This document shows, in pieces, positions 6,025 through 31,092 of a DNA stretch of 64,000 nt; the stretch's first letter is position 1; each line of letters begins with the position of its first letter. Where the stretch lies: positions 395,690 through 459,689 of the forward strand of contig CM082595.2 in assembly GCA_040954595.2 (NCBI GenBank), read 5' to 3'. Source of the stretch: Balanoglossus misakiensis. Taxonomy: Eukaryota; Animalia; Hemichordata. The notes below the pieces were generated by a model. That model saw only the letters and a list, made by a program, of their open reading frames with translations. It searched no databases and was not told where the DNA came from. The position numbers and the translations under genes are program-made.

Positions 6025-6350
6025 TTATGATGCAGCCCCAGATGATCGACTCCCACTAGATGACTTGTACGTGGTTTCAGTCGGAGCTAAATACGGCGAC
6101 ACTTTCTTCCTGGTTGGTGAAATGCCAGGTCGTCTCTTGGGTGGTGACTGCGATCGTGTCGTCTGATTTGCCATGCTCCGTGGACGCGCACTACGAGGGG
6201 CAACTGGATTCTCAGCTGTCTGACTTCCTCCACCTCCTCCAGCCCCTCCACTGCCAGAACCATTGAACAGCATTTTGAAATTTTTCAAGGACTTGAGTGG
6301 CATGATTGGCTTGGCTTTTCGACTCTTCTCAAAGATCTCGAGTGTCAAAT
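6025..6350 (-). CDS. TTLL10: TTLL10-like glycylase, last coding exon ((D)LTLEIFEKSRKAKPIMPLKSLKNFKMLFNG plus basic Ser/Pro tail, TAA)
   Basis: Acceptor CCTTTCAG ending at 6351, phase 1; matches the recalled TTLL10 C-terminal motif ETLDLxLExF..S.....PL.S...F.LL.NG. Confidence 0.9.
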
Positions 6351-6608
6351 CTGAAAGGAAATTAAAAAGAAATCATCCATGAGTGGATAAAAATACTGCT
6401 TTTCAAGTCAATAAATAATATTGCCGGTACTTGTCACTGAATTAGATTATTGTAGAAATAAAATTACAGCAATTTTGAAATTGCACTGTTTTAATCATTA
6501 TTTGAGATACAGTATGCATGATAGAGTGGGCAGAACCAAATTGTACATTGCACGTTCTGCAGCCATACATTATTCGCTCTTGACTTTTCATGCAACACAA
6601 GTACTTAC

Positions 6609-6819
6609 CTAAAGTCTCTTCAATGACACCAGGAATGACTTCCAACAGAGCTTCACAATTGACATGCAAAGCTGGATTGACATTGATTTCCAGCAACCAA
6701 ACTTTCATGTCCGTGTCCAGCAGGAAGTCAAAGCCATAGAGATCAAAATATCCCAATTTGCACTGAAGTTTATTCTTCACAGAGTGGAAACACTGAAGCA
6801 TGATTTGATTCATCCGTTT
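6609..6819 (-). CDS. TTLL10: TTLL10-like exon with catalytic motifs (KLGYFDLYGFDFLLD...WLLEINVNPALH)
   Basis: CAG acceptor, GTAAGT donor, 211 nt, phase 0 to 1; TTL-family G-x-D and E-x-N-x-x-P motifs. Confidence 0.96.
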
Positions 6820-7064
6820 CTGTGGCAACAAAAAAGGAGAAGACATAATGTAATGATAGTTTTAACACAAAGAATATGAACACATTCAAATTTTATGAAC
6901 ATGTTTTGAATATAAAAAAACTTTTGAACTGAAAAGTTGGAAGTTGACATAAGCACACAACAAACTTTACCCTCTTGTCATGATTTCAAACAATCCTTCA
7001 TATCATTCGGTTTCAGCGAGCCATTCGATTCTAGATGAAAGAACACAAGTCTCAAAATACTCAC

Positions 7065-7205
7065 TGTTAAGTATCCATACACCCAATTTTCAGGCAAGCC
7101 TTTTTCTTCCGCAAGATTTGTGGTGACATATTCGTTGAATTTATCCATACTCCATGCTGTGTCCTCTTTCATAGCTTCATAATTGGGATCCTTTTTCTGG
7201 ACATA
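7065..7205 (-). CDS. TTLL10: TTLL10-like exon (YVQKKDPNY...KEDTAWSMDKFNEY...GLPENWV)
   Basis: TAG acceptor, GTGAGT donor, 141 nt, phase 0 to 0. Confidence 0.95.
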
Positions 7206-7448
7206 CTACAGAAAAATAATTTTGGTAAAATATCTTTAGTTTTGGCAATGTGAAATCTATAAATGTCTGCCTTTGTGATACATTAGGTTACTGTGTTTGT
7301 CAAATATTTGATTTGAATAAAGTCAGTCGTTTTCTACGGTATGTGATTTTAACCAGGTTGATAAAATCATGATGCCGTCACACACTGAAATAACACAGTC
7401 AGAATGTGATTGGTGGGTTGACATGTCAATCATCTTTCTCCCACTTAC

Positions 7449-7620
7449 CTGATTGGTCAGATGTGCTACCAGGTCCTTGCCTTCTGGGTCGTAGTCTTGG
7501 CACGAGAGTCGAAGGTATCCTTTGTGGTAGAACACCATGAATGGATTTGTGCAGCCAATCAGCAAATACGCCCTGATATCAAACTTCTTTCCGTTCAGAA
7601 GTAACGGGTTTGGAACATAC
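7449..7620 (-). CDS. TTLL10: TTLL10-like exon (YVPNPLLLNGKKFDIRAYLL...GYLRLS...HLTNQ)
   Basis: Poly-C tract plus CAG acceptor, GTAAGT donor, 172 nt, phase 2 to 0; KFDIR and HLTN TTL motifs. Confidence 0.96.
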
Positions 7621-7754
7621 CTGTGGGAGGGGGGGGGGGAATCAAGGATCAGTTTGAGGTTACAGAGTATTTCTTTTATTTTCACTTTGTGATGAAATAA
7701 AGTGAAGTAGACATGGAACTTTCTGCAGCTCATAACAAATCAAAGGTTACATAC

Positions 7755-7944
7755 CTTTGTATAAGCCTCTGCATGGGAGGCAATCTAGATTTCTTTCTTT
7801 GTTGTGGTTGTGTCGGCGCTGCGGCAGTTTGATCTGGATCCTCAGTGGGCGGATATTTCTTCTTCAGCTCTGTGATGTCATCCACCAAGTAGATACCTTT
7901 ACCCTGATTTAAACCAGTTGGCTTACAGATCCAGGTCTCTCCCT
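7755..7944 (-). CDS. TTLL10: TTLL10-like exon (GETWICKPTGLNQGKGIYLV...RLIQR)
   Basis: CAG acceptor, GTATGT donor, 190 nt, phase 1 to 2; WIxKP...QGxGI ATP-grasp motif. Confidence 0.96.
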
Positions 7945-8132
7945 CTGCAAAACAAAACAAAACACAGTGACATCTTGTGAAGCATTTCTTTGCAAATCAT
8001 CATTCTACTCACTGAGATATGTTGAATGACCATTTATGACTATTCAATCTAACCCAAATAATGTCAAAGGTTAGCGACTTTCCTTTTAAGACTGAAAAAT
8101 TGGGATCTTTGTAGTAGAAAAAGTTCACTCAC

Positions 8133-8342
8133 CTTTGAAAGTGTCAAAGAAAGCATCACGATCAGATTTGTAGTCAAGGATGTAGGTCTCCGGAACAAAT
8201 TCCTCCATTTTGAGCAATTTGGGTTGCTTCGTCCCCTTCTTGACACGGTCCATCACTCTCTCGTATTCTCTCAGACTGTTAATCAAACCAACCTTGGTGG
8301 CCAGTAGACTACTATTTGGAATTCTGTTGACTAGTTGTTCAC
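8133..8342 (-). CDS. TTLL10: TTLL10-like exon (GEQLVNRIPNSSLLATKVGL...MEEFVPETY)
   Basis: TTTTCAG acceptor, GTGAGT donor, 210 nt, phase 1 to 1. Confidence 0.95.
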
Positions 8343-10935
8343 CTGAAAAGGCAGGAACAAACAAGTTTGTCATTAGCTGTTCTAATTTCACCATTTTGCA
8401 AGTAGCTATTGACATATATAAATTTTGAAAATCACAACAATGTTATTAGATTTTTCCCCTTTCAAAGTCAGCTTATGAAAAGATTAGAAAAGCCAATGGC
8501 TGTGATGTCATCAAGTGCACAGCGCCCCCTCAGATCGTATCCTTTACCCGCACTGCTGTCAGCCACCTACGTCCCCCTATGGCATTTAAGCTCGACTCAA
8601 AGCAAGTTCCAAGATTAAAATCAAACATGGTAAACACTACAGCAAAAAACATTCTTGAAAAACGCTTGTAATTGCCAGTAAACAGATAGCATCAGACAGG
8701 AACGGATGGATCCAAGTTGTTTCCATATTTTGCCAATTCCTCCCGGGATCACTTAGTCTAAAGGGCTGAAGAGGGCACACTGCTAGATGATATGAGGGAA
8801 AACGTTGAAGTCAAGACTTAATCTTCATCTTATGCAAGCCATAGGCATTTTATGTACGTTTAGCGACATTACCTCTTGGGATATTTAGAATCAACCAACA
8901 GCATGAATAAGTTAGTGTGCAAAAATTTAGAGATGATGGGAGACTTAATTTTTTATGGCGCAATTCAGAATTGTCAAATGTTACTGTAGCAGATAACTCA
9001 ACCCACTTCTTTCTGAAGACTAATGGTTGACGTGATAAAATCAGACTTGTGTGTTTGCTGATGTTTTCTGAACCAGAGACGAAAAATCCCAACCATTAAG
9101 TCAGATTTGTTGCTAAATGTCAGGTCCATCAAAGACCAAACATTTTTTTTAGAATATGTACAAACAAAGAAGATTGTGTGATTATCTTGGTGATAGGACC
9201 TTCAAAATTTTATGAAGGAAATTATATGAAAGGAAAATGATTCAGACTTTCATGTCTTTTTTTTACCAATTTCTACATTTATTCTTTGCTAATGGGAATC
9301 TGTTCCTACTGATAATTCATGGATACTTCAATATATTCCTTCAGATTTCATGAGTTTAAGGAGTTATTCGTATGAAAAGGAAAGTCTGACAAATATAGGT
9401 TACATTGACATATGTAAATTATATCAATTAAAGCAAAAACTCTGACAGATAGATATTCTGATGACATTTACAATTAAATTTTTCTCCTTTTCCCCTGATG
9501 CTTCTGTTATGCCTGTTCCCTGCTGATCAGGCCACTGACAACAATGTCAAATATTGAGATTGCCACAGTCAGTATGTTCAGTGACGGGAATTAGAAAGGC
9601 TATCTTTTGGCCTCTGTCGATGGAACCCATGGATTTTCGCACACGGACGTCAATCATTTACGCCCCCAAGGGTGGCGTTTTGAGCCGCAAACTGATGAAA
9701 AAATTGGCTGAATATTGAAAGTGTGCAATATGAAGTAATGACACTGTGACTCGAGCAACCGACGTTATCAAACTGCTAAATGAATCTGTGGTTCCAGGAA
9801 AATAAAATGTCAGCCCACAGGAATATTACCTTGCTACAATTAATTATTTCAGTATCCCTGGGAGGGATGTGGTACATGCTTGAAAAGATTTTGATCAAAT
9901 TTGGTCATTATCAGTGAGAAATTATTTGTGATGAAAACAGAAATGAGAGGAAACACTGCAAAACTGTTCTCGCTACTTCACAGATCTAGTTCGATATTTA
10001 ATGAACTGAATCATATTTTTTGTTGTTCAACAGATAAATTATTCAGCTGCACAAAAATTGGCGATATTCAAATTGATTGTGCTACCAGTAATATTAAATC
10101 ATACATCATGATAAAACCCAACACTGGTGATATAATTCATGATAGACTTCTGTCGTAAAGTGTAGTTTAGCTCAAGTAAAAAAAATAGTTTCCTTCTTGA
10201 ATTTTTATGACCAATTATAAATCAAATCTGAAAGGAATGCCAGCAAAACTGGAAAAGAAGAGTGTGAGAAATATTACAGAGACAGCTGAGCCATGAACAG
10301 ACAGCCCCAGGTAGGATATTCCGCGACAGAACCTTGTACACATTTACAAGTCATATATCACAGCGCAGCTGAACAGATGGATTTGTCAACCAAAGAAAAT
10401 TGAATCAGAATTACTTTTTTCCATTGTTGGGGATATTAGCAAATGAAAACTAATGATGCAAAGAGAATAATGCATGTGAGTAATAGTCAGATAGTTTCAC
10501 ATTTGCTCATGGCATGGTTTGTTTTCTTGAATGAATTCAAAATTAAATCTATTTTTCCTTGGGTGAGCCTTGTGCGATATACCCGTTGTACATTAGTCAA
10601 GTTTGATGGTCGAGATGAATTTGTGATCAAAGTTTGTCTGATAAAGATAACTTTAGATATCAATCATGCGACTTCTATCATGCAATGATTTTTCCCTGCC
10701 TGATGGCAGCCTTTGGCTACGTTGTTGTGAAAAAGTGCCGGTAATGCCTTCTGTTTGATTATCTTTTGATGGGGATGAAAATAAGATGGGGAGACTTCAG
10801 AGAGTTGTAGAGTTAGCTACAGCATCAGTGCCAACAACTGAGTGCAATTACCAAGATATAATTATACCAAAGTTAATGCAATATGACCAGAGATAAGGTG
10901 GAGGTCCCAAGAGACAGTCTTATCAAGAAACCAAC

Positions 10936-11054
10936 CTTCGCGAAATGACTGGTAGTTAATGTTGCATTTGAGTTCCACCCATTTCAGTTTGAAGTCATCA
11001 CACGCCTTATCTCGTATCCTACGCCATCCGCGAGCCAGTAATGGCGTTTCAATT
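10936..11054 (-). CDS. TTLL10: Mutually exclusive exon A (IETPLLARGWRRIRDKACDDFKLKWVELKCNINYQSFRE)
   Basis: TTTTTGTCAG acceptor, GTTGGT donor, 119 nt, phase 2 to 1. Confidence 0.88.
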
Positions 11055-11306
11055 CTGACAAAAACAAACAACCAATCAGGGTGAGTCCTCGGCTGTCAAT
11101 CACACAGAGTTAACCATTAGTAGAAAAGGGCGGGGGAGTTTATTGTGTCGCTGAAACAAAAGGTTGCCTGTTTCCCATTTTACGCTTTTTGGAGGGGTGT
11201 CAGGGTGAGGGAAGGACTGTGACATGAAAGTGTGCCTGTAATAAAATATGGGGGGGGAGCATGTGGCAGGAAGCAGCAACACACTGGCATGCACATTGGG
11301 ACATAC

Positions 11307-11425
11307 CTTCTCTGAAAGTGGAAAAGTCAATATGACTTTTAAGCTCCACCCATTTCAGCTTGTAGCCATGACTGTATCTGTCTGAAATGCGCTGCCAGCC
11401 TTTTGCTAAGAGAGGTTCTGCAACT
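11307..11425 (-). CDS. TTLL10: Mutually exclusive exon B (VAEPLLAKGWQRISDRYSHGYKLKWVELKSHIDFSTFRE)
   Basis: CTCAG acceptor after a long pyrimidine tract, GTATGT donor, 119 nt, phase 2 to 1; paralogous to exon A. Confidence 0.9.
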
Positions 11426-12707
11426 CTGAGATCAAGGAGCAAAAAAAGAAACAAAAACAATAACAGACTATGCAAGAACACACACTACAAGAAGCAAGAT
11501 TTCAATATTCTAGGCTTGCAAAGTGCATCACAGAAAGAAAGCAGCAACTATAACAACATAGAGAAGTCACAAACACACTGAATAAAGGAAATAAGATAAT
11601 ACTTTCAGAAACATCACCATAAAATGTGACTTTTCATGTTCTTTATGACCACAATGGTCCAATTTTCATTTTTCAGAAAGAGCAGAAAACGTACATGTAC
11701 TGTAGAAAGTGCATGTTACTGTGGATGCGATTAAGGATCTTTAGATGTGAGACTGTTTGAATCTGAATGTGAGAAAAAAGTCTCAGTCAATTCAAGCGGT
11801 TTATCTCATTTCCCAGTGGACAGGATAAGAGCAAAGCCACGGACAGAACAGATACAACGATGGTACAACGTGGAATGTATTATGTACACTGCATGCTTGG
11901 GGAGTTCAAGTGATTCATGGAGTAAACGTTTGAATGACATGGAAATTTTTTCACTCAGGAAATGGAATGAGTAAAACGATGGCCATGAAATGTTAATGTG
12001 TGTAATGGGAATACGTTAACAACCTTTTATCTTATCGAACACAGTGAAATGATATGGAAATATATAATGAGATTTGAAAAGTATAATATGAGGTTATGTA
12101 CATGCAATTAACCCTTTGCACTCTGAACCCCTGGTATGAGTATGGGAGAATTTTTGTGTTTTCCCAGAACTTGGGTACACAATAATATGTGTCTGGTTCT
12201 GTATTAACATTAAAGGGCCCTATCTGTAACTTCTGGCAATTTTTCAGAGATCACACCTTTAGTTTGCCAATAATTTGTGATAACTGGGAACTTAAATTGA
12301 CAATTTCTCGTCTGATATTTTGCAAAGTTGACCAGTGAGATGTACTGTAACTTTCACTGCAAATGGCAATTCACATGAGACTTAATACTTACAAGTACAT
12401 CTACATGTATGTCAAGTCATTTGGGGGATTGAGGGAGAATTACAGAGTTCTGTTTGTGTATGTACATCTTCTACAGAGCCATGGATAATTGCATGTACAT
12501 GTACCAGGTGTACATTGAATATTACAGACCGAGCATGGGATTTTTTTGCATGGGTGGGTGACCAAAACAAAAAAGTGGCCAAATAAAATTCCATGTTCAG
12601 TCTTTAATATTTGATTAGCTGCTTTCCAATATAGTTCATCATCTTCTCTTTATGATTTCAATATGCAGATCTGGTAGTTTATAAATAATCTTTCGAACAA
12701 GACTTAC

Positions 12708-12903
12708 AGCGATACACCATTGCCGCCACCAACGTAAAACGCTGGCCCCGATTCTTTGCTTCTCCCGCTTCTGACGGTACTGATATGATTGTTTGGTTGC
12801 TCATTTTTGTCACCTCCACTGGACGACCGTTTTCCACCCGGTGTTTGGTTACCTCTCCCTGAGTTTCCGCTGGGCGTGTTGTTGGAAGAACTTCTTTCAC
12901 CGC
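12708..12903 (-). CDS. TTLL10: TTLL10-like exon: Ser/Gly/Asn linker then GPAFYVGGGNGVS
   Basis: CTTACAG acceptor, GTAAGT donor, 196 nt, phase 1 to 2; GP.FY.GG.NG is the recalled start of the TTLL10 core. Confidence 0.88.
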
Positions 12904-15619
12904 CTGTAAGACCAAGTTGCATAGAAGTGAGGGCGCTTTTATCATGTGAATTGAGGTTTACGATAATAGGATACAAGCAACATAAATCATGGTTCCATGA
13001 AAAGTGAATATCAGGGTTCAAACTGTACACTCACAGACACTAGAAATTCTCAGACTTTCCAGGAAATATCTCAGCATCTGTTTCTAAAGAATAGTTGAAG
13101 TTACAAGTGTCATGTTCCAGGAAATATATGGTATGGTAATCATGTAATATTATGTGTCCAAAATAAATATGCATTTTTTATATTATTTCACACTGAATAT
13201 TTTCTGTTGCATAGACAACAACAAATACAGACAGAAAAGATTTCTGTGTATGAAATTACTTCAAAATCAAGTGGACTGCAATATGAATCACCCACCCACA
13301 GAACAGCCACTCAGAATGCAAGTAAAAACAAACGTGTATGGTTCTCATTGCATGAATACCTACTTGTCAGAACTATCGATATCAATAAAACAATCCACTG
13401 AATTTCCTCCGCAGTTTCTAGAGAACATGCAAATTGAGAACACACACAAGGATACAGGTTCTTTCAAACAACACACAATGTCTTAAAGGTCACTAATGGA
13501 AACCTTTTAAGCCGTAAACAGAAATAATCAATAAACCTGACAAGTTTATTAAAAGGAACTTCCTTCTCGCTGCTGTCAGAACATTTCTATAGTCTAATTT
13601 CAAAAACATATTTCATGAATTATTAATGGTCTTGTGTTGTATTTTCATACAATATTTGTTGAAAGTTAATCATTCATCTCACCTGCCTTCATTTTCTGCA
13701 TCATGCATTATGATTGCAAACATAAATCACTCCTTGCTGATAAACTAAATATATCTACACAAAGTAAAGTCTAATTTAATCAGTTTCTTTTCTTGATGGA
13801 TTATTTCTCAATAATGCAGTTTATTAAAATGGAATGGTGGGACTGTGAATGGATGTATAAAAGGACACACATAAAGGAAGTTTTTTTTGACAGCAGGACT
13901 GATAGATTTTATGAAATATGATTTTTATAGAATGAAAAGTTCAATGTAAAATTAAACAAATAATAACAAAATGTAATGTACACAAGGCAACCCAGATTCT
14001 CAAGGTTCCCTTAGCAATCTGTTGAATTCAACCCAAAATGGATACAGCCTAATCATAGTTAAAACCTGATGGTGGTTCCCCACTTATTTAAAATTAAGTT
14101 TGGACGTGCTGTACGTATGCAGAGTGTGTAAACTACAAACTAAAATGCAAATAGCATTCTTTCTTATACAAATTACTAGCATGTGAAAATGTATCCACAA
14201 ACGGAATATGATGTTCGGAACACAGGTCTGCATAAATTCACTATTGAGTAAAAATCTCTTTTATGTCCACTCGTTGAATAATTCAGTCTTTCTGGGATGA
14301 CATTTGCAGAAGGTGTCCCAGTCTCACCTCGATTTAATGTCAATGCTTTGACATACAATGCGAGCCAGAGATTTACAGTCAATTTGAAAAGCAACGGTTA
14401 TGCATATGCGTTTTCCACTCCATCTGAGAAGCCATCGGGTGATATCCATGCGAACTGGGTCACTAGGTATAAGCACAATACCAAAATGCTCTATGTTAGA
14501 CAGGCTGAGATAACTTTGATAGCATTCAATGTTATCATGTGAAAATTTCTTTTCTTCTCCCAGATATTCTTGTTTATAAATCATAAATGAGAAAGAGATA
14601 TATACTGAACTTACAGAGTCAAATTACATCAAACCTATTTTTGTACGGTTTTCCATAATGGAGTAGAAATATGTTATTAAAAACTGAGTGGTCTCTCAGT
14701 AGTAAGAATTAATCAAATTGCTTTTTAAGTTCAGTCAACATCATTAGAGGCTCAGCAAGTGTTCTTAGGTTTGAGATGTTTTGATGTCTTGGATTATTTC
14801 TCAAGGAAACTTGGGGCATAACTTGAAATATCTCTCCTTAGAAGGGCAGATGTTCTTGACATCATAGCCATCTACAAAAACTAGTTTGCTATGAATTGGC
14901 AGCATGATATTGGATGTACAGAGAGAATGTTGTATACAATACCGGTTACAATAATACCCGTGCATTTCACAATACAGAAACATATTCAAGAAATTCTAAT
15001 CCAATAACATCATTGGGATCAGGTGATGTTACCCTAATTGCTGTCACAAAATTTTCCTAAGCTGTCATGAGATTTTCTAAGCTTACCTGATTTGCTTTTT
15101 ATGCAAATTGTCTCATTTTTTTATTACCACGAACATTTCGTGCGACGGACACCCTAACAGAGTCAGGTTCAAGACTTTCATTGTTTGCTGCTAAGCTCTC
15201 AAATCCCATTTGGATGCTTTAATTGAATTTGTCCATTAGAAGTGTGGTCTCTCCCTCTCCTGACATTTTCCATGTGAAACCTGTCAAAACCCATCGTGTG
15301 AATCACAGTTTATTGATGTCTCTGCTAATGTTGATATGATGCAGTCTGGCACTGCCTGCCAAAAAGGCTCAAAGCACGGTACAACGACCTCTAGATTACA
15401 AATTCAATTTTTCGCTACGAGTAACGAAGTACAAATTTTTAGAACACAATACAATGACCTCCCGTTCAAAAAAATGCAACTCCCCTCCACACTCTAATTA
15501 TTTCAGTAATCATCTTAATTTGCAGGAAATCCAGGAGATCTGACTGAGTCTTCTCAATACGTTGACAAAACTTCCCAAGACTCAACCACCGCTTCTTGCC
15601 AATGGAACGGGATAACGCA

Positions 15620-15633
15620 GTATCCATGGCAAC
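15620..15633. promoter_or_regulatory. RFX X-box-like motif GTATCCATGGCAAC in the intron between the NlpC/P60 and TTLL10 halves
   Basis: Matches the X-box consensus GTHNYY-AT-RRNAAC; a weaker motif lies at about 15595-15608. Confidence 0.45.
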
Positions 15634-18566
15634 AAAGACACACTTATCATTTTCAGGGTCAACACAGATGCTCTCATACGAGGTTCCTACTGTTTATCTA
15701 TCTCATTTCTTGCGCAAAGTAATTGATTCCAGAATGCATCCATCTGAAACATTTCTCACAATGTTTATGCACTGCAGGATACTGGAGTGAAATGATTTTA
15801 TTCTTTCATTTCACAAATTGTGTGCAATGTTCAGAAACCAAAATGAAAACATACGCAAATCAGAAATCCACCAGAACCGCCCCATAAATGTAGCCATTAT
15901 TCCAACTACCCAAGAGAGATGCAGCTAAGAGATTAAACGATATTTTATGGGAATGATGATAAACGATCGAATCTTCAAGATCTTTGTACATGTGGGATGC
16001 CAGTGACAAATTTACGACTAACAGCTCACTGTAATGCTAAATGGTTAGACTCTGTGTCAAGCCAATTTAAAATCCAAACAGAGAGTCATTTTCAAATAAG
16101 ATCCCTCATTCTAATGCTTACACGTATTAAGACATACTGAGCCATGACAGGGTACGTTCTTTAAGAATTATCCTGTCTAACAAAAAAGGGATCAACAAAA
16201 TGCATCTGTGCCTTCGTCAGTGTCTCTCTTATTCATCCAAAAAGTCGATGATCCATTCTTTGCCGTGAAATTGTATTCATTTATCATAAAAAAAGACATA
16301 ACTGTACAACTACTAGCATCACCTATGACCTCCTATCATACAATACATTCCCATGTTTGTACAGTACATGGAAATGGCTGATGTCGGCCATCTTGAATTT
16401 CAATTTGATGGTCAGGATGTTGGCCATTTTGAATTTCAAAGATTGGTATTAAAATTTGATCTATACTGGCTGTCTAGTTTTGCATATGGGCCCAAACTAA
16501 AAGTTTATTTTTCACACACTTCTAAAAGTAGTTCAGTTACTTTTAAAACTCAGGATGCATGGAAAATGCATGTGTTCTTTCTACTTAATTCTATCCCCAC
16601 TTTTAACCAACGGTACAAATCATACAGGAAGAGTGTAGTAAACAGCCACTTTGCTGCAACAGAAATTCTGTCTTCCGCTTTTCTGTCTCACGCTGACAGA
16701 AAGTGAAGATTTTATTTCCTGAAGATGTTCACAAGGATATGCCTGGGAGGAAATGTGATTTTCGTTAACAAGGTGAGTGAAGTTTGCTGGGGAAATTCGA
16801 TTTGGTCGGTCACTAGAGAAAGCCATGAGAGCACTTTTCTCATTGTGTAGAAATTAGGACAGAGAGCGTTGCAAGAGAAAGTCAGTCAGTTTTGGAGAGA
16901 TCTCCAATTTGTGTGTTAGATTTTTCACCTTTTATGACCTCGGTCAAATTGTTCGTGCGGAAGCTCTATGGATCTTCACTTAGTCATGCCTTAATTGGTA
17001 GCAAACGTGAATGAAATAGCACAGATGCTAATTTAATTTCTACACTTCCTTTGAAGATTTATAATGTAATATGAAAGAATACATCACTTCTCCTGTGTTA
17101 ACTAAGAAATAGTGCAGTAACCCACGCTTCGTATTAAATCATGGGCATCTATCTTTACACGTACATGATGAAAACTTGACATTTCATTCACTTTAACAGT
17201 CACACCACCTGTATATCATTAAACATTTTGTCAAAAACAAATCTGACAGCAAACACACTTCACACTTTCATCGCCTACAGCAGAAATTATTGTTGACATG
17301 TCATATTCTAATCAAACTTTAACTGAAATTTCACTTTGAATGATACCTGAACTCATTTCATTTTAAATTTGGCTAGTCAGAAATGCAACCAATAGCGAGC
17401 CAGCCTGTGATAAGAACGTCGGAGAAAAGTCCCACAAAAAATTGAAGAGGCAACAAATAAGAACTGGTGATTGAAGATAATTACACCAGGATTGTGAATA
17501 AGTATTTCTTCGGGAACAGATTCCCTAATCCCTTGTTTGATCATAATCCTTTTTAACACCATGATAAATCAGTGTGTCTCTCACACACAGAGCAGAAACA
17601 AAACCCCAGCCATCAATCAACAGCAAAATCTGTCAATACTCCTTCAAAGGCCGTCATTTCCCTCCAAAACTTAATAGTACCATCTCCACTTCCGATTATT
17701 TGCATAATTTCTTTGCAAACAATGAAATTTGCTTCCAAGAAAGCCAATCTTTCCAAATCTCGCCATAATCTCATTCTTTGATGAGAGGATTATTTACAAA
17801 ATTGCACCTGTAGTATTTGCCGTTGATGACTTCATCAGTGAATTCACAGCTATTTTCCCTCAATTTTTGATGATTGTGCTGTCAATCAAAACATAGCTGG
17901 TTTCCTTTAGAAGAACTTTGATATTTTTTGACAGGCTAGTTAAAACAGCACAAAAAAATTTCAGAAAATCCCAGACTACAATTTCTGGGCATTCTCGAAC
18001 ACATTATATTTACTATCATGGCGATGATCATATATATGTTAAAGTACACAAGATATTATCTCAGTCTTCAGTTATGTGATCAAATCTAGCAGCTTTTAGA
18101 GGAAATAACAAAAACACTTGGAAGACATAATGAACATTTCCATCTGTGATTTTAGTCCAAGCGCTTGTTGACTTTACTTCTGCACCAACCATATTTAATA
18201 ATCTCCCAATACATTCTATTGTGCCTTGCACTGTTTCCACATTTCCTTCCAAAATAAAATCCAATATGGCTACCGGCAAACAGATTTGAAAATACAGTAA
18301 TTGCATCAATGATTTAAGCATGTCTACCAGTCCCTTGGGGTATTACAGTTGATATACACTATCAAACACATTCTGATCATTTCACCATTACTGGACAGGA
18401 ATAAAACCGGAGCAGAAGTCCCCATTAAGCAGAGATTTGGCAGATTACAAGTTCGGCATCACGACCAGCATTTGTTTGTGGGAAGAAAAGCAGAAAATCT
18501 TCTTAAATAAATCTATCTGGGGAGTCCCTGTAGTTAAACTATTAGAGGAAGATCTAATGCACTAAC

Positions 18567-19165
18567 CCCTGCCGCCTATGGAGGAACCTTTACTCTTTTG
18601 TTTGTCATCACCATCGCATGGTTCCTCATCGTCTTCGCTTGCCTCCTCTAGCTCACCATAGTAACTCTCTATGACGCAGTCATCCTCACTGTGGTTGCTG
18701 TGGCAACAATCGACATCTCTATCTTCGTCCTCACTGTCGTCCATCTCGCAGATTGAACAGTTGTCAGAGAATGCACTGTCATCATCCTTGTTCTCATTCA
18801 CACAGCAAACATTCTCCTCCACCTCATCTCTCGTCCTTTTCTCGTGTTTGCAAACGTCTTCACTGCCAGAATGAGCTCTTGCCAACTCTTTACTTTCCTC
18901 TTGAAATAAACTTTCATTTTCAAACACTACTTTGTGTCCTTCTGTCCTGTCAATCAAGCCATCTCCACCACTCTTTATCTGACCTGATGATGAGATGTCT
19001 TCCCTGTTGTCCTGGCAACACTCTGAGACATCATCCTGATCATCATCATCATCATCAAAATCTTCTGCTGCTTCGTCTTGCTCTGTTTCAGAATCTTCAA
19101 GTGCAAATATTGACATCTTTCCAGGTTCGTATTTGGATTTGCGCCATGGATGCTCGGGGCAGAAA
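18567..19165 (-). CDS. End of the NlpC/P60 module (FCPEHPW) and ~180-aa Asp/Glu-rich, Cys-studded linker
   Basis: TCATCCAG acceptor in phase 2 continues ...GICRS; 599 nt to a G|GTTAGT phase-1 donor. If unspliced it terminates at TAG 18562-18564. Confidence 0.8.
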
Positions 19166-19841: not shown

Positions 19842-20031
19842 CTTCTGCATATACCCTGTAGCCAAGTGTCAATGGATTTGAAGTGATACACCATGCTGTG
19901 ATAACTCTTGGAGATGAATTTGTAGGAATCAAAGACTTGTACATGACCCTTCTGCCATCTTGCACCAACTGACTTCTCTCCATCTCCTGCCCAGATCTCC
20001 ACATGCACCATATTATGTCGCTGCTTCCGAG
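19842..20031 (-). CDS. NlpC/P60 exon with catalytic His (RKQRHNMVHVEIWAGDGEKSVGARW...WLQGICR)
   Basis: TTTGTTTAG acceptor, GTAATT donor, 190 nt, phase 1 to 2; HVxI..G.G motif. Confidence 0.9.
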
Positions 20032-21217: not shown

Positions 21218-21268
21218 TGTCTATCTCTGTTTATCTATCTATGTGTCTATCTAGCTATCTATCTATCT
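21218..21268 (+). repeat. Imperfect (TCTA)n microsatellite
   Basis: TCTATCTATG...CTATCTATCTATCT visible. Confidence 0.75.
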
Positions 21269-24200
21269 GTGCAAGTTTCAGTTGCGTGCAACAGAAATGT
21301 GCTTCTCAAATCCCCCATCACTCCTGCAAATGATTGACTACTTTAGCAACTGCTAAATGGACGACACTCTTCCATTCCAAGCCCCTACAGCATTACGGAA
21401 GATTCATGCTCCAAACACATCCATTTACAGACACGTAACAAATCTGACTAACAGTTCACCCTGGCAGATTTCAGCACACTTAGCACTCCAAATTATCATC
21501 TCTCCTTCGCTCCATCAGCAGCCTGGCTGAGCAAAGACACGCAAATTTTCTAAGTCTGTCATTTCCTGTTAAAAGCGATTGTACGCTTTCCCAGAGGGTG
21601 TCTTGAGAAGAGATAGGGAAGGCTTGAGCCAGATAAATAATGCAATGGCTACATCTTTTTGCACAAACTCTTGAGTGCTTTCAATTGAAGGTCTTTCTAT
21701 CCTGCCTGATACAAGTAATTTAATTTGAAGGCAGTCGTTGTCACGCAGTTAAAAAAAACTGCAACTGATCAGAATGATGTAGAATTTTTACATTTACTGA
21801 GCCAATCCATGTACCACCAATCGTCCGTTCGCAAGGGTCATTGGCTCGACTACATTGCATGTACAGACAGAATCAAACAGACTATGCATTGTTACGGTTC
21901 AAAAGCTTGACACTTGTATAAGGTCAACTGTTTGCAGTCGTGAGTGAATGTGCAACATTAAAAAACTCTCATAAACTTATACAACGTATTTTTCCTGTCA
22001 GATGTGGTGAAGTGCTTATTCAGGCAGGTGACACAGTAAATGTTCATCTCACGTCTATGCAATGGCTTTTTCTGTTAAAAAAAAAAACTGAAACAAAATG
22101 GAAACGGCCACCAAATTGATGACAATTTTGCAAGATAAGTCAAGTCAAGACCTACAATCTTAGTTTTTCACATTAATTTTCTGACATAAAAAAACATGAT
22201 ATTCTTTATTTTTACTACTTAGTCATGCCATTCGGTTTTCATTTGCAGAACAGCAGACCGACAACTTGAGGGAAATCATTCTTGCCAATTCAGGGGTGAA
22301 TGTATTCAAACAATTTCAACATTAATCAGTTTAATTCCATGTTGTATTGATGATAAAATGCAATTTTCCCCCTCTAAAATTTAATCAGCCTGTTCTGGCT
22401 CTAAAAGCAACACACACATGAGTCATTAATGGACGCACAAACCCAGAGGCCAAAGTTATTTTCCCATTATGACGATCGACTTATTATTGATCATATATGG
22501 ACGGCTGCCAGGGTTGTCATACATGCTCTGCCCAGCAATTAAATTGAATTTGAAACAAGCCAACCAACCAGGGACCTGATATCTTTTTTATGACATTCCA
22601 AGAAATGAAATAAGTTAATAACCTTAATTGGATTCTGGTCTCTTAAGACACAGCCCTTCAAGCTCAGCAAAACCACTTGTCGGATACAATAAGTCCTGCT
22701 CCAGATTATTTACTTTCAGTGCAAAGAAAACAGTAAAAGGTAGGTTCGAGGAGAGTGAAAGACAAATCTTATAAAAATGTCTGTCGTAGCCAATCTACTC
22801 AATTCTTGATTGGAGTCTGGCTACATAGAGTCTTTTCTCCCATGATTCAGTTCAGCTTCACAATGTCTGCGTCGGTTGCCCCGGGCACCTGTTGAGCTGC
22901 CATGGCAACAGTGACAAGCAACTGTTTAGGGGGAAAACTCTTTCCTGTTGCATTAAAATCTTGGCGGGACACTTCTTGACCGAAAATGTCTGCATAAAAA
23001 TAAAAGTTTATGGAGACCGCGTTTCGGATCAGGCAGGTGTTTGGTTGGTGAGGATGAAGAAACTGAACAATAAGCTTCGAATAAACCTGTTCAGTTTTCT
23101 TTTTATCTTGTTTACAGTGATCATGAATTATACATAGTGTACTTGCAAAACTTGAAAAGAAAGAACAGTTACACAATATCTGCAGTGATGCAGACAGAAA
23201 CGGAAGTTATCCAGTCGCCCACGGGTTTCTTTGCATATGAACATTTTAAAATGACGGATTCTGAAGGATTTCCATTTTTCTCAAATTCTAATCCTCAGGT
23301 GTCGGCTAGACTCTCTGTAATAAACACAAGCCTAAGCAATGAATAAAATATATGGTTGGTCTTTTTCTAGACGAGCACTTCCGCTAGTGAAGACACATGT
23401 ATATTTTAAGACATGTTACCGAGATATCCTCTTTTTAGAGCACAGACACCACTGGGCAGATTGGAAAAGAACTGTCAATGAATTAGTGAGGTGGTGACAA
23501 CACTGATAATCTCAACGTTGCAAGACTTTTACTGGTAAACATACAGGTTTGATGCAAAGAAATTTCTCATTAAGATTATTGAAGGCACGCCTCTTGGGAG
23601 AAATAGTTAAGGAGTAAAATGGGAACAAAATTTTTGGCATAAGAATGATTTGAACGTAATCATTCATAACCATGCATGATGACATTAGTGAAACAGCTAC
23701 GTTAGTGTATACTGTGAGTGGCATCATTCTTTTATGTATGGTACATTGTGGGGTGAAATGGAGGAGTGGGGGAGGGGAGGGGGGCTAAGTGCATTGCATG
23801 TACAGGTCTTGTGCATTCCAGCATATTCCTCCAGGGAATGGTGGTCTCCATAGAGAGTTCCTATTTGGGAAACAAGTCTCCTTTCCGGCGTCACTTTTAT
23901 TGAAGTGATAAGAAATGTCTCAGAAGACATCTTACTAGTTGCAAAAATGCATTGAAGAAGAGATTGAAATTTCAAACGTGTATGTAACTGTACAAAATTC
24001 GTATCATAAAAGCATTGGCACCAGAGAAAAATTTGATATTCTGGATGGATCCACTCTACGAGACAGTTCAATGAAAAGAGAAACTTTCATTCATTCCCCA
24101 CTCTCATGAACATATATATTGTGTACTTTTAAAAACAACTCCTAAGGTATTTCATGTAATATCAAGCTTCCTTGCCAAAGAAAGACAAGGAAGCAGAATT

Positions 24201-27200
24201 TGCTGTTACCTGGAAAGCAATCAAGCAAGTCGAACAGACAATAGACCCAGCAAGCGCTTGTACAAAGAAAATCACCCGCGAAACACGTCATAGATAGTGG
24301 ATTATTGTCGGACAAAAAAGAGAAATTTCCTCGCACAATGGCCACCTCGCTGTGAAAATGTCATCTATTCTGGCAGAATCATTAACACTGCAAATAGCAC
24401 GTGAGGTTTACCAATCTCCTCCGAGCCGGGACATAATAGCTGGCAATCTCGTCGTATACTTTTCACATTTATTGAAATTGCTGCCACCGTGAAAAGTTCA
24501 TGCAAGGGATCAAGCTATGCTTTATTCTCTAATTATCTGTTTCTGTGGGGAGGCCATACAAAAGTGGAATAATATACAAGACCTACGGTGCTAAGTGGGA
24601 AGCTAAGGTATAGGAACGCGTGGGTGTTAGCACTTTTTTTCTCAAAATATTGAAATTCACATTTTGACAATGAACAGGAAATGTTACTAACATTGTTAGA
24701 TCCCATGTATTATAACTACAAACACCAAATACTATTTTGGTCATTTGGTTTCATTTGACGAATGAATATTCAGTTCAAAGAGACGTGCTGAAATATCAGT
24801 AAGCTTCCGAGATGTTTGAAAATTACAATTGCGGAGAAACAACGCTTTTTCTTGGTCTGGCCATTATGACAATATGAGTGTTAAACCTGTTACTTCCAGG
24901 AAATTGGCCAAACGACGGAATTAGCACAGCAAAAACATAAGACAGTTTTCGGGATGAATTATTTTCACAACACACCTGGCCACCTGCACACAATTATACT
25001 TGAGATAATAGATCTCTTTGTGTTTTATACTTTTAAGGGTCTTTCGGTCTTTCAGCCCCCAGATCAAATTCAGTGAATTATAGCGCACTTATAAAAAGAA
25101 TACTTCACCGGCAAACAAGGAATTAAAATAATCGTCTTTAATTTACCTCTATCTGTTCTGTCTCCCCTGTATCTAGTGACAATAAACCGCTCAGACAGAG
25201 ACTAGACTCCATCCATGGTAACATTAGAGCAGTGCCTCCACTTGTTCTAAAATGATTTAGGGTCTTATTTCTCAGAGGAAACAACGTCACACTAAATCAG
25301 GATACATTTAGTTTGCAGTCTCTATACTAACGGGAATACTAATCTGACTGCTGTCAACATTACAACCTTGAGTTTAACTTGGATTATGAGCGCGATCTGC
25401 CTTGGGTATCCAAATCCCATTGCAGGCCACCATTGCAGATCAGGGGTAATGTACTCCATTTCTAACACTAGTAACAGACATCAGTACTCAAACATTTGTA
25501 CATTAAAGGTATACAATCACCCATATATTGTTTAACCCGCGTATCTATGACTGTGTGGTGGCCACCCCATGAAAAACTACCATTGGCTAGAGATCTCAAC
25601 TTGCCATGGTAACTGCTACTAAATTTGCATAGGTGCCCCATTTCTTCTACTGTGACCATGGGGTTGTGCACTTTTTTGTGTGGCCCCAACTGAGAGTCTG
25701 TGACTGGCTAGATCTTCAGTATTCACAGCATCTTTTAGAAGATTTATATCAGTGACAGTGTCACTTTAAACTGTGACAATCCATTTCCTAGTGGGTACGT
25801 CACTACCATATGCTGTCACTGTTTGAAAGCTGTACCTTTTAACAACTTACACAATCCTTCAGGGGGCTCCAGGTACTTATCTGTCCTTCAGTCAGAAAGT
25901 CGTGACTGCGGAGAGATGAATCACTTTTTTATGACTCAGGAATATCTAATTTATGAATTTCAACATGTTATATCGATAGGGATTGTTCCCACTCATAAAA
26001 ACTCATGAATCTGTGGACTGTCATGACTCGAAGGAAGGAAATGAAATCCCTAGTAATAAAAGATCTGCCACCTGCCATACAAATACACAATAGTGAGTCA
26101 ATATTTGACATTACAGGTTACAAGTTGTGCATAGGCAATAGTCTCTGCAGTTTAATGCACTTTGACTTCAGGTCACAGATAGCATGTTTTTCTTTTTTAC
26201 CCCGTGTCCTGATCAGCGTTGCACAATCGATTTTTGCGAGGCAGTTTCACTAATGACCTGCTGAGTGCCCTGTGACTTGATTGGAAAATGAAATCTGTTT
26301 CTAAATAAGGATTTATTTCAAAGAAACAGGGGTTTTTAAACCTCAGTTGCTGTCTCGTATTTGAATTGTTTTTATGATCTCAATAACGTCTTAGTTTACG
26401 GCTATGAAGCGTTCCAGTTGCTGCTTTATACTGGTAGTATTTTTACGTTCTTATTAACTTTGCAGTTGTGAACAAGGTTTATCCTTCTGACTCTGGTTTA
26501 CTGCATGTGAGAGATTCAGTCTGCAGGAGCAGATCTTGTTTGCCATCTAGGTGACGTGTGTCTGTACCTTCTCTCAGACTCATTTCAGGTGTGTCTATAA
26601 GCGAGGTGATGTTCGCCTCGGGCACACAAAGAAGAGACTATCAACACCTCATTTTCTCTCAAGAGAAAGCCAATTAATGCTAAATCATACATTTTGTGAC
26701 AGTGACAACTATCGCACACAAAAGAAGACTACACACTGTACAAATAAAGGGAATCTGTGTGACAGATCCAAGTGAGTCTGGCCAAGACACATCTCAGACA
26801 AGCCTGAGACTCTTCACCCCAGTGTAATTCTATTTGGCGTATACCAAACCTCTGTGAAATCCTTGCTCTGCTTATAATCTAAGCTCAGCGCACTGGTTAG
26901 ATTTGAAACCACAAGACACATTAGTGGAACTGGCAAAAAATAACAAATACATGTATATGGTGCCACAACTCCCCTGCCAAATACAGGTTTCATTAGCCGC
27001 GTCATTATGAATTTTTGCAGGAACATGCAGTCAATCAGGGCAACAATAAAAATTGGTAAGTGGAGTTTGAAGAGGAAAATCTTTTTGAGTTGCGGTGAGA
27101 TGTCATGACTCTGCCTTCAGTCTGTTGAATGGGATCAGATGTGTCAGCGTTTGTTAATGCGTTCTGCTTGACAAGGCATGGCGCAGACTAACACATCTTA

Positions 27201-28130
27201 GGAGCTGGTCTCCTCATTACTGCCAAATGGAAGAGGCAAGGGGCAATTTGTCAGACTTTTTAACCTGTCTTGCAAAGGGTCAGTGATTTTACATGGGGGA
27301 GAAGTACACACACAAAAACCTAAAGCTCTTCAGTGTCAGGAGAGCAGAAAAAAACAGGAATACTAATGTAGAATAGATCACTGAAGCAATTTATCCTGAT
27401 GTGATTTCAGTTTCTCTTTTCAGGTGAAATCATGGCCTTAGGGAGACATCTTCAAGGAGGCTAGGAGTTATGAATAAGTGTGGGAAAACCACACATAGAC
27501 TGTAGCGCTATAGGGGTGCCTGTTTGTTAGTTTGCGGACAAGAAAACGAGACTGCACACATAGCCGGTTTTAGGATACTGATGAGTGAAAACTTAACTAC
27601 TAGTAGTCCAACATCACAAACTTTAATACCATATAAAAAGGGGCAAGCTCCAACTGGACAACATCTGTGAATCAGTCACTTTGAAATTAGTACCCAAGTA
27701 AATGTTGCAAATGTCAAACACTGCCAATTGATTTTGAAGCTGTTGGTTTTCTCAACTCCAGCAAAAACATGGGACCTATGGATATTAGCATGTGTCAATG
27801 TTTGCTGTGTTAACATCTGAGATCCTGTCCATTGCTTTAGTTTCCTGCAATATTAAGATATTGAGAGGCTCATATTGAGGATAAAACTTGCATGTCGACC
27901 TGGGCACACACACCCACTCATTCGCAAACTCTGCCTGCACCTGTGACTTTGTCAAAATTTCAGGGGCGACCTGCAACACTTTGAATGGTGTCATTTCATT
28001 GAAGTTATCATTTGATAATTGAAACATCTGTTGCACAAATCTATGATCGGAGTTCTGTGCCAACCCTTGGTCAGCAAATTTAGAACCCTGTTCTCACATC
28101 TCACATTATCAGCATACAAATACATAAAAC

Positions 28131-28296
28131 ACAGTAAAACCTGTCTAAACCAAACCCTGTCTAATCAGGAAACCTGTCTATACTGAACACAATTTCTAGT
28201 CCCTTTCACATAGCACCACAGGACAAAAGACCCTCTATAAACCGAACACCACTGCAAACCAATTTCTTCGGTCCCTTCGGTGTCCAGTTTAACAGA
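28131..28296 (+). mobile_element. Degenerate Tigger/pogo-like MITE relic
   Basis: Begins CAGTAAAACCTGTCTAAACC with three subterminal CCTGTCTA repeats and an internal TTCGGTCCC; right TIR decayed. Confidence 0.4.
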
Positions 28297-30941
28297 CTAC
28301 ATCAGGATAAGTAAAACAGCTAGTGACACAAGCTGCACAGTACATGGAAAATAGCTAACACTCAGCTAAACCATTGTGAGCACAATGCTAGCAAATCGCG
28401 AAAGAACACCTGATCTGTACTGTACCAAAATATATGTACAGTTTGGTGTGAACAAAAAGCCAATTGATCAGAAACTTCTCTGCATCGACTGACAATCACA
28501 GTGCACTCACAGAGGCAATTGCAGAAGCAGTGTAAATTGGCACCTCCTTTTAATAATCTGCAAACTTGTTCAATGAAAACCCCCAGGGAGACGGACTGGA
28601 TCAGTTGGTCGGTGATGAATAGGAAAACCTCTAAAATTGATTTCCCTCAAGCACAGAAAGTCTGCAAATATTTCCCCCGAACCTTATCGCATTCCCTATT
28701 CTGGAAATCCCAGGATAAACACACCATCATGTTGGAATGGAAAATCTGTTGAGTTTTATTATGTATTCTTCAGAGTGACAATATTTGACAATTTCTGTAG
28801 AATGATGGTTTTGCCACAGAACTAATTTATAACATACTTTCTATTTTCAACTGATGCAACACTTAAAGCATGACCACAGTTTCTACATTTGTCATTTAAG
28901 TTTTCTGAATCGGCCAGCACCCTGTAAGAGAAGTATTATGACTGGGTCAACCAAACATGAAATAAAATCAACAGGTGGTCATTAATTTCTTGTTAAATGT
29001 GGAGAACATTCAACATTTTAAACGTGTGAACATATTTTGTACAGAAAGGTCTCTTTCTTCCAATACACATCAGTAAATCAAATAATGATGCCTGCAATAC
29101 AACCAAAGTTAGCAATGTATCACCACTACAATGAGCCCTCAGTTACCTCCAAATTATGCAGAGACATGCTTTACGACAACCTAACATGTAATGTTTTCTG
29201 AGAACTGTTCAAACAAGGGCTGTTTGTCAAGCTTACATTGGCAAGATTTGACTTTATTAAACGCACACAGACGAATCATTGCCTGCAGGCTCTGTAATAA
29301 AATGAAATGAAATCGTAATCAGGGCTAAGTCGGAGGTGACAGCCTCAAATCTCAGCCAATTTATTACCCACCATTTTTCATCATGAAGCACAGTTGTGTT
29401 GTTTGAACTTTATGAAGAATCCAAGCCTCTCTCCAAACACCCGTGGGTGACCCCGACCACACGAAGCAATTTTCCCAATAAGAGCATAAATGACACGATT
29501 TTTGATGAAGCACTTACGCTATAAACTACTTGAAAGATACTGTGATTGAATTTGCTTTCTCCAGATGAGTTGCAATAGATAGACTTGGTCTGAATCCTTT
29601 CAGACTCATTTCAAACACATTTACAAATACAAAATATACTCCACCTTTTTTACAATTGTGATGGTGGTTCAGTTTTGTGATCGCAAGTATCAAGTTACAA
29701 AAAAAAATCATTAACCATGTGCCTTAGTATCACTGAATAGAGTGTGGACATGATCAGACAGCATAGACTGCCATTTGAGGGGATCGAACCAACGAAAATG
29801 AAAGGCTTTACATGAACATCTTTCCACGTCTTGTGACTTCTCAGCAGTTCTGCTTTGTAGGGATCAGCTGCAGAGCAGAATTGTAATAAGCAATTACAGA
29901 GTTGTCAGGGGGCAGAAGTCAAAGGTGACATTTGATGTCTTGATGTATACTGCCTCAGCTGTTTGTACCATCTGCCGGGGACGATGAAGAAATTAGGGTT
30001 ATGCAATTCAATGACATCGCAATAATCTAACCACTATGACTTTTTCTCTGCATTGCTTTCTCCAGAATATTCTCAGTCGATATCCCCAACTGACAATTCT
30101 AATCTCTTTTTGAAGTCACTGTTTTACCGACTTGACTACAGAAGCTATTGCATATAAGCAAAGCACAGACATCACTGAGACAGTTGACAGCAAAACCAGA
30201 TATCATATAAAGGCCATATAAGTATCCTCTACTTCCACACTTGTAAGGTACTTATAAGGCCTGATGCAAAAATATTTGGAAAATTGCAGTTGTTTAGATT
30301 TGTTTTTCATTAAATTTTTCTTCCTACTCTGCCACTGGATATTAGCAGTGAAAACTTTCAATGTCTCATCAGGTTCATATAAGTCTTCCTCACAAAGGCA
30401 CTCGCTTATTTCAAACACCACTTAAATGCAAATTTCTCGGTGATGAGATTTCTTAGTTCCTGGGTGTGGGTGTGTATGGCTTGAAGGGATCGTTTGCCTC
30501 AAATCAAGGGCTTTATAGAAACCAACGACAGGAAATTAAAGTGGCTTTGAAGGGTTAGATTGACTCAATATTCACAGCTATTTTACATTAATTTAATGTC
30601 ATTAGCCTGGAAGGATGGGTGACTCTCTTAACAACAGATCTTAGTCTAGAGATGAAATTGAAATTTTGCAATATTACACTACCCCTTAAGGAAGCTGTGT
30701 AACATGGTTTGGGGGTGGGAATTTCATCATTTCACAGTAATACAGCATGTACACAATTCAAGGTATACATGTAATCAGGCAGTGCAAAATGTTGTAGCCT
30801 CAGCCTTTACCATAAATGCTGACTTGATGAGCAAAAACATCCCTCAAGATTCCTGGAGAGATGAAACCATCAAGTCACATTTATACAGAGCAAAAACAGG
30901 AAAGGATGAGCAAGATAGCATCAACAAAATGAAGCACTTAC

Positions 30942-31092
30942 TTCCTGGGGAGTGGTATCGTTTTGCATAAGGAACTCCGAAATATTGCTTGGCCGTATCC
31001 AGGAATTTCATTCGCAGAGACCACATGCGTTCTGTGTCCAGCTTTGCAGACAGCTCTCTTTCCTTCATCAGTTGCTCTGTTCTGTGCTCTGC
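30942..31092 (-). CDS. NlpC/P60 N-terminal exon (AEHRTEQLMKERE...KFLDTAKQYFGVPYAKRYHSPG)
   Basis: TTTTCACACAG acceptor, GTAAGT donor, 151 nt, phase 0 to 1; A..Y.GVPY motif; joins in frame to 20665 across a 10.3-kb intron. Confidence 0.88.

Follow-up and report, generated by a model that had tools for sequence, protein, structure and literature searches.

A TTLL10 gene with an N-terminal NlpC/P60-fold domain

We analysed a window of 64,000 nucleotides from the hemichordate Balanoglossus misakiensis (GenBank assembly GCA_040954595.2, contig CM082595.2, positions 395,690 to 459,689), whose minus strand is predicted to carry one spliced TTLL10 gene that encodes an NlpC/P60-fold domain joined in frame to a tubulin glycine ligase. 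Twelve minus-strand exons, flanked throughout by AG and GT and matching in phase, were joined into 2712 nt, corresponding to 903 amino acids and one stop codon (Table 1). The same product was obtained with either of two 119-nt exons, and the frame was broken if both were included. An earlier reading made from the letters of the window without database searches (the sequence-only reading) had described this chain and four NlpC/P60 motifs in the right order. Both descriptions were reproduced, the motifs being AKQYFGVPY (30993-30967), LDCCGL (20639-20622), KPGDLVF (20507-20487) and HVEIWAGDG (20005-19979), in this 5' to 3' order on the minus strand.

The predicted protein shares 740 of 910 positions (81%) with the TTLL10-like protein XP_070560557 of Ptychodera flava, in an alignment that covers the full length and is ungapped at the exon 4/5 junction (SSIGGRG/GERS, the slash marking the junction). 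Because the alignment runs end to end and includes this junction, the exon chain is not a product of chance. The junction residues are conserved in all 6 P. flava models, and the predicted exon 4/5 junction in B. misakiensis is thus shown by orthology. A read-through artefact of two neighbouring genes was ruled out, since the fusion is conserved elsewhere. A second, separately numbered P. flava model of the same fusion is XP_070562189.

The 5' end of the model is incomplete, as it starts at the splice acceptor of the exon that begins at 31092. An in-frame ATG at 31068 corresponds to the start of P. flava isoform X5, and the conserved basic N-terminal helix of orthologues (LQEAF..F[KR]) was not found in the window with a position-specific scoring matrix or a permissive tblastn search. 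The donor of exon 4 (G/GTTAG) is weak, and the unspliced reading hits an in-frame TAG. Exon 5 has no start codon, the first Met past the linker is residue 518, which lies within the ligase, and of the 3 candidate alternative first exons for TTLL10 that were detected within intron 4, none was convincing. With intron 4 retained, the product would consist of just the amidase and the acidic linker, and annotations of comparable proteins exist for Saccoglossus and other animals.

Exons 6a and 6b (10936-11425, minus strand) are tandem duplicates in the early TTL domain, identical at 21 of 39 residues, and the pair is kept in P. flava, where exon 6b agrees with isoform X2 in 37 of 39 residues and exon 6a with isoform X1 in 34 of 39. 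This pair may give rise to two ligase variants.

Table 1 Coordinates of the predicted TTLL10 gene, its candidate catalytic residues and the microRNA precursor in the window.
Feature	Position	Strand	Content
Exon 1 (first coding exon found; internal acceptor)	31092-30942	-	N-terminal helix end, GVPY
Tyr42 (oxyanion-site Tyr)	30969-30967	-	Exon 1
Exon 2	20665-20459	-	Asp61-Cys62-Cys63, WNQAYQ, PGDLVF
Cys62 nucleophile codon (predicted)	20633-20631	-	Exon 2
Exon 3	20031-19842	-	His129, Glu131, Gly142 (usual third-triad position), Arg144
His129	20005-20003	-	Exon 3
Glu131	19999-19997	-	Exon 3
Arg144	19960-19958	-	Exon 3
Exon 4	19165-18567	-	Domain end C-x3-C-x2-H-x-W, then acidic linker
Exon 5	12903-12708	-	Gly/Ser-rich linker end and TTLL10 core start (PAFYVGGGNG)
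Exon 6a	11425-11307	-	119 nt, mutually exclusive with 6b; corresponds to P. flava isoforms X1/X3/X5
Exon 6b	11054-10936	-	119 nt, mutually exclusive with 6a; corresponds to P. flava isoforms X2/X4
Exon 7	8342-8133	-	TTL domain
Exon 8	7944-7755	-	TTL domain (WICKPTGLNQGKGI)
Exon 9	7620-7449	-	TTL domain: KFDIR, HLTNQ; Pfam TTL E 1.6e-15
Exon 10	7205-7065	-	TTL domain
Exon 11	6819-6609	-	TTL domain: GFDF, EINVNP; Pfam TTL E 1e-14
Exon 12	6350-6025	-	TTL domain end, basic low-complexity tail, stop
miR-8/141/200 precursor (Rfam RF00241)	39089-39157	-	68.8 bits, gathering threshold 47

Identity of the ligase half

The C-terminal half had been read as a full TTLL10, and this assignment held. Pfam TTL matches were found on three exons, the ATP-grasp motifs are intact (KP..NQGKGI, KFDIR, HLTN, GFD and EINVNP), and the TTL ATP-grasp core is 52-55% identical to vertebrate (frog) proteins that bear the name TTLL10 by automatic annotation. 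Matches to the solved TTL, TTLL6, TTLL7 and TTLL11 were far weaker (E 1e-8 to 1e-19). Judged by these pairwise matches, made without a tree of the other TTLL clades, the ligase half is closer to TTLL10 than to other TTLLs. We take it from knowledge of the family that this ATP-grasp enzyme adds Gly to existing Gly branches.

Independent support for TTLL10 orthology was provided by a miR-8/200 hairpin, which shares the strand of the gene, is located 8 kb upstream of its first identified exon and is the single RF00241 copy found within 20700-64000. In mouse, miR-200b/a/429 has Ttll10 as its host gene (PMC5356520). The precursor is likely hosted by, or linked to, the TTLL10 gene of the window, and the miR-200-TTLL10 link likely dates to the deuterostome ancestor.

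Fold and catalytic residues of the domain

The fold was obtained from a predicted model of the Stentor orthologue P0057 (mean predicted local distance difference test score, pLDDT, 82.5), not of the window protein. P60-type gamma-D-Glu endopeptidases ranked top in a Foldseek search with this model (E 3.7e-5) and aligned to it with Z 12-13 and a root-mean-square deviation of 2.4-3.9 in VIA-align, the best reaching Z 13.0 over 117 residues at a deviation of 2.7. The amidases of glutathionylspermidine synthetase (GspS) and trypanothione synthetase (TryS) gave Z 5.9 and 5.2. Pfam NLPC_P60 (PF00877) matched exon 2 alone, a single-exon query, with E 0.0024 and 18.3 bits against a cut-off of 23, and 5 of 38 selected relatives scored 23.3-26.7 bits. 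When the PDB was searched by sequence with the domain, the best E was 0.47 (profile), which is not significant, and one exon retrieved the unrelated CD276; only the fold search placed the domain. The model makes the domain a member of the NlpC/P60 superfamily, and the residue comparisons below set it apart from the cell-wall endopeptidases.

Conservation was assessed over 294 domains that were non-redundant at 90%, with counts taken over the rows covering each position. The catalytic-site residues were close to invariant, namely Cys in 276/276, His in 267/268, Glu in 267/268, Tyr in 257/258, Asp in 274/275 and Arg in 260/262, and Tyr, Cys, His, Glu and Arg were all intact in 236 of the 237 domains that cover them, although these counts are partly biased, as two of the three search types rely on shared words. 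The putative Cys62/His129 dyad stands in canonical order, and the presumed signature Tyr42 precedes the catalytic Cys, a position at which NlpC/P60 enzymes have a Tyr with a known role (PMC3142127). Taken together, the conserved residues predict that the domain is an active cysteine amidase. In all ten fused orthologues compared, the domain was better conserved than the ligase (for example 59-65% versus 36-46% in protists), which fits a very conserved substrate.

Comparison with the bacterial endopeptidase YkfC showed that the equivalents of Tyr226 and Asp237, which contact gamma-Glu, are both retained, and that Trp228 and Ser239, the markers of L-Ala-gamma-D-Glu binding (PMC2954226), correspond to Lys, Arg, Gln or Glu and, in 273/276 domains, to Cys, respectively. 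YkfC Arg255 was not used as an argument, as the alignment register is ambiguous by one residue. A hydrophobic N-terminus was found in 1 of 131 full-length members. Past the catalytic core, a C-x3-C-x2-H-x-W motif (19842-19850 and 19140-19165, minus strand) is conserved at Cys in 221/253, Cys in 204/233 and His in 199/226; it is possibly a metal site and is lost in volvocine algae.

Distribution and age of the fusion

A protein search with exon 2 alone retrieved 61 proteins, and many of these were TTLL10 sequences of full length. With a profile of 30 fusions, 785 matches were obtained, and among the best 120 the domain (with Cys and His) was found together with TTL in 87, partially in 7 and not at all in 26. 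Invertebrate carriers included sponges, cnidarians, molluscs, annelids, a brachiopod, nemerteans and echinoderms, and vertebrate carriers included lampreys, sharks, bichir, sturgeons, tarpon, coelacanth, caecilians, axolotl, turtles, crocodile and squamates. The sequence-only reading had stated that vertebrate TTLL10 has no such domain, which is wrong for lineages from lamprey to squamates; the search that it proposed among other invertebrates and ciliated protists recovered the fusion from sponges to echinoderms and in the ciliate Protocruzia adherens. Further non-animal carriers were the choanoflagellate Salpingoeca kvevrii, the ichthyosporean Chromosphaera perkinsii and the jakobid Stygiella incarcerata. 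All these hosts, and those of the short forms named below, belong to lineages that we take to be ciliated or flagellated. De novo transcriptomes contained the fusion within open reading frames in Oscarella pearsei, S. kvevrii, S. incarcerata and P. adherens.

In metagenomes, 58 of 80 loci belonged to the family, and 26 of these 58 carried TTL, always downstream and on the same strand; 11 of the TTL loci were single open reading frames by the standard code and 8 more by table 6. The other 32 family loci, many of them on short or interrupted contigs, had no TTL in view. HMMER, run against the whole library, retrieved 345 representatives with an E of at most 1e-30, and TTL was present in 34 of the 45 listed representatives of at least 500 amino acids. 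TTL was also the only recurring partner in a Pfam scan of 38 selected proteins. In four proteins (P0323, P0326, P0329 and P0342) the TTL half scored 76-89 bits with no Pfam TTL match at E 1e-4; these may be degenerate or incomplete ligases next to an amidase that was kept.

Since the fusion was found in Holozoa, Discoba and alveolates, it likely dates to the last eukaryotic common ancestor. The domain tree broadly tracks host groups, with 10 of 44 inner branches strongly supported. Both a lineage-specific novelty and a recent transfer from bacteria were rejected, the former by the spread of the fusion across eukaryotes and the latter by this broadly host-like tree.

Splits and stand-alone copies were also observed. 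Short forms without TTL occur in Stentor, Blepharisma, Moneuplotes, Gonium, Pleodorina, Volvox and Tetrabaena, the last four being volvocine algae, and further ones in Symbiodinium, Andalucia, two tunicates and Macrostomum. In the tunicates and Macrostomum, amidase and ligase are separate gene models. Five squamates have a domain-only and a TTLL10-only model, the two lying on contigs of equal length, and these were counted as annotation splits. The stand-alone copies retain the catalytic residues. Among the 114 matches of a crocodile query and the 61 exon 2 matches there was no mammal, bird or frog; mammal and bird TTLL10 proteins rank below the best 120 of the 785 profile matches, and all six frog TTLL10 models are without the domain. 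These sequence comparisons indicate that the domain was likely lost in mammals, birds and frogs.

Linker and contact between the domains

The linker of the predicted protein is acidic, with 64 Asp or Glu in 177 residues. A model of a full-length sponge orthologue showed two well-predicted domains and a disordered linker (predicted template modelling score, pTM, 0.57). When the two sponge domains were submitted to complex prediction, they scored 0.48, versus 0.27 for the best of 3 controls, with 62% or more of the contacts shared between runs and a partner pLDDT of at least 76. Of 78 solved pairs, 51 attain the mark used for such predictions, as do 2 of 108 mismatched ones, and scores of 0.60 or below include only 5 of the 78 solved pairs and all 4 mismatches that passed. 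The prediction thus lends weak support to a domain-domain contact in the sponge orthologue.

Comparison with known systems

Like TTLL10 of mouse and Xenopus, the B. misakiensis gene has a TTL ATP-grasp core with intact motifs, and its miR-8/200 hairpin 5' on the same strand parallels the mouse gene as host of miR-200b/a/429. Unlike them, it adds the N-terminal NlpC/P60-fold domain, the acidic linker and the mutually exclusive exon pair. The Xenopus TTLL10 construct used in biochemistry, 105-570, is without the domain (10.1101/2024.03.31.587457).

The domain shares with YkfC, MepS/Spr, RipA, SagA and PgdS the fold (Z 12-13) and the order Tyr, Asp-Cys, GDL and His. It differs from these P60-like endopeptidases in having Gly at the third triad site and an invariant Glu two residues past His, DCC rather than DCS, no Trp228, new invariant NQ and GAR motifs and the C-x3-C-x2-H-x-W tail, and in being eukaryotic, without a signal peptide and joined to TTL.

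The sequence-only reading had likened the protein to GspS and TryS. The likeness stands for the architecture, an N-terminal papain-like amidase with a C-terminal ATP-grasp amide ligase. It does not extend to the fold, which is nearer to the P60 type: the CHAP-type GspS and TryS amidases are distant matches. The ligase exons match TTL and not the glutathionylspermidine synthetase family, the linker is long and variable, the halves are often split, and the proposed substrate is a protein side chain. Membership of the GspS/TryS family was ruled out by the low amidase Z scores and by the TTL-type ligase.

Among enzymes that act on tubulin tails, vasohibins are papain-like cysteine peptidases (PMC10318531), and Zhang and Aravind proposed papain-fold domains, other than the one described here, as erasers of TTL tags (PMC3495828). 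The only glycylation erasers that we found named are Giardia M20 dipeptidases, metallopeptidases that act on 14-3-3 (PMC4230590). Vasohibins, CCP/TMCP enzymes, ciliary transglutaminase-like domains and Giardia M20 dipeptidases all differ from the present domain in that none is of the NlpC/P60 type or fused to a writer.

A candidate deglycylase

The fusion partner and the fold suggest that the domain is a deglycylase that removes Gly side chains from tubulin tails, a reading to which we give an even chance. The earlier proposal of a combined writer and eraser is reasonable and is strengthened by how old, widespread and conserved the fusion is. We hold somewhat more tentatively, at a little less than even, the fuller version, in which an ancestral eukaryotic deglycylase, joined to TTLL10 since the last eukaryotic common ancestor and lost in mammals, birds and frogs, cuts the gamma-Glu-Gly isopeptide bond with a rearranged Cys-His-Glu triad.

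In the proposed mechanism, Cys62, activated by His129, would attack the amide carbonyl, Tyr42 would stabilise the oxyanion, Glu131 would presumably fill the role of the absent third triad member, and Arg144 would bind the departing Gly by its free carboxylate. The likeliest bond to be cut would be the gamma-glutamyl-glycine branch point, with Gly-Gly trimming as the second option. Branch-point cleavage is favoured because the nearest folds cut gamma-glutamyl amides, because the invariant Arg near the leaving-group site could hold a terminal carboxylate, and because volvocine algae have kept the domain on its own, their relative Chlamydomonas being a species that only monoglycylates and has no TTLL10 (PMC11244163). 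The long acidic linker may loosely tether the two domains, so that writer and eraser could reach the same microtubules, and a futile cycle could be prevented by timing, by alternative transcripts or by contact between the domains.

Several observations weigh against this reading. The third triad position, located by means of the motif spacing and the predicted strands, is Gly in 250, Ala in 11 and Ser in 2 of 263 domains and never His, Glu, Gln or Asn. The gamma-D-Glu pocket is, by its aligned residues, remodelled, so the bacterial specificity is not transferable, and the search bias noted above affects the conservation counts themselves. The linker ranges from about 30 to more than 1000 residues across orthologues, and together with the pTM of 0.57 this leaves tight coupling unsupported. 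The halves also often stand apart, in the short forms without TTL and in the separate gene models of tunicates and Macrostomum. The volvocine argument relies on the relative Chlamydomonas and not on the TTLL10 content of the volvocine algae themselves. TTLL10 is self-limiting without an eraser (10.1101/2024.03.31.587457). Finally, mammals polyglycylate (bull sperm; PMC11244163) with no copy of the domain among the matches listed, so the domain is not a universal eraser.

Alternative explanations differ mainly in the substrate. The domain may be an active amidase or acyltransferase on something else, such as a non-tubulin client of TTLL10, a small gamma-glutamyl compound or, by autoprocessing, its own linker. 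Its catalytic residues are invariant and yet its pocket is unlike that of all solved relatives, NlpC/P60 includes hydrolases, phospholipases and acyltransferases (PMC3142127), and stand-alone forms exist. TTL is nevertheless the sole recurring partner, and pure autoprocessing sits poorly with stand-alone copies that keep the catalytic residues, so we regard another substrate as unlikely, though deserving serious attention. Removal of glutamate branches (gamma-Glu-Glu), which would free tail sites for glycylation, seems to us rather less probable still. The closest folds cut gamma-glutamyl amides, PgdS degrades poly-gamma-glutamate via NlpC/P60 domains (PMC5880399), and the invariant Arg could equally bind a glutamate carboxylate. 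However, glutamylation already has its erasers in the CCP and TMCP enzymes (PMC11244163, PMC4230590), TTLL10 is stimulated by it (10.1101/2024.03.31.587457), and TTLL10 elongates branches and does not start them, so that clearing sites would be of no direct use to it.

A non-catalytic reader of monoglycylated tails that recruits or regulates the elongase would suit the Gly at the third triad position and the need of TTLL10 for a primed substrate, and non-catalytic NlpC/P60 domains exist (RipD, among the Foldseek matches); given that Cys, His and Tyr hardly vary among eukaryotes and that PPPDE1 and LRAT can do without the third residue or carry a substitute (PMC3142127), we consider a reader very unlikely. 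The weak donor of exon 4, with its in-frame TAG if unspliced, could also mean that B. misakiensis has two separate genes or transcripts, as Saccoglossus and the five squamates have split models and Anolis has isoforms without the domain. This is more improbable yet, because the junction residues are kept in all the P. flava models, exon 5 could not start a protein and intron 4 offers it no convincing first exon, and the fusion is seen elsewhere in transcriptomes and single-frame contigs. Hardly credible, finally, is a peptidoglycan hydrolase directed against bacteria, as in Trichomonas or mites. The top structural matches are indeed cell-wall endopeptidases, Trichomonas NlpC1 among them, but the two L-Ala-gamma-D-Glu markers (PMC2954226) are replaced, 130 of 131 members have no signal-like N-terminus, the partner is a cytosolic ligase, and the broadly host-like tree (10 of 44 inner branches strongly supported) gives no sign of recent transfer.

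Significance of the architecture

The ligase-amidase architecture within the TTLL family is ancient and has been largely overlooked. No paper on a TTLL10-NlpC/P60 fusion was found in a search of main texts, and Iyer et al. 2009 (Mol Biosyst, on amidoligases) may mention the architecture. In PMC3495828 NlpC occurs in a reference title, in PMC10318531 there is no occurrence of TTLL, and UniRef already labels some members 'NlpC/P60 domain-containing'. The eraser of glycylation is still called unidentified in papers from 2014, 2024, 2025 and 2026.

Glycylation is a major modification of tubulin tails, and the domain family would be a small, compact eraser candidate with a predicted nucleophile, whose natural stand-alone versions should express easily. 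If the deglycylase reading is true, mammals and frogs would have lost the very domain in question, which would account for the failure to find a deglycylase in the usual models and give an evolutionary reason why work in mouse, human and frog missed the eraser. An active domain would supply a missing piece of the tubulin code, provide a tool for stripping glycylation from microtubules and mean that most animals regulate ciliary glycylation unlike mammals. Even with another substrate, the biochemistry of TTLL10 has used a form without a domain that was kept for more than 1 billion years.

Other features of the window

A tRNA-Lys(TTT) gene lies at 637-711 on the plus strand. Between 1220 and 3795, a 254-bp repeat forms two arrays, with 3.4 and 3.6 copies, that flank arrays of 41-bp and 28-bp repeats.

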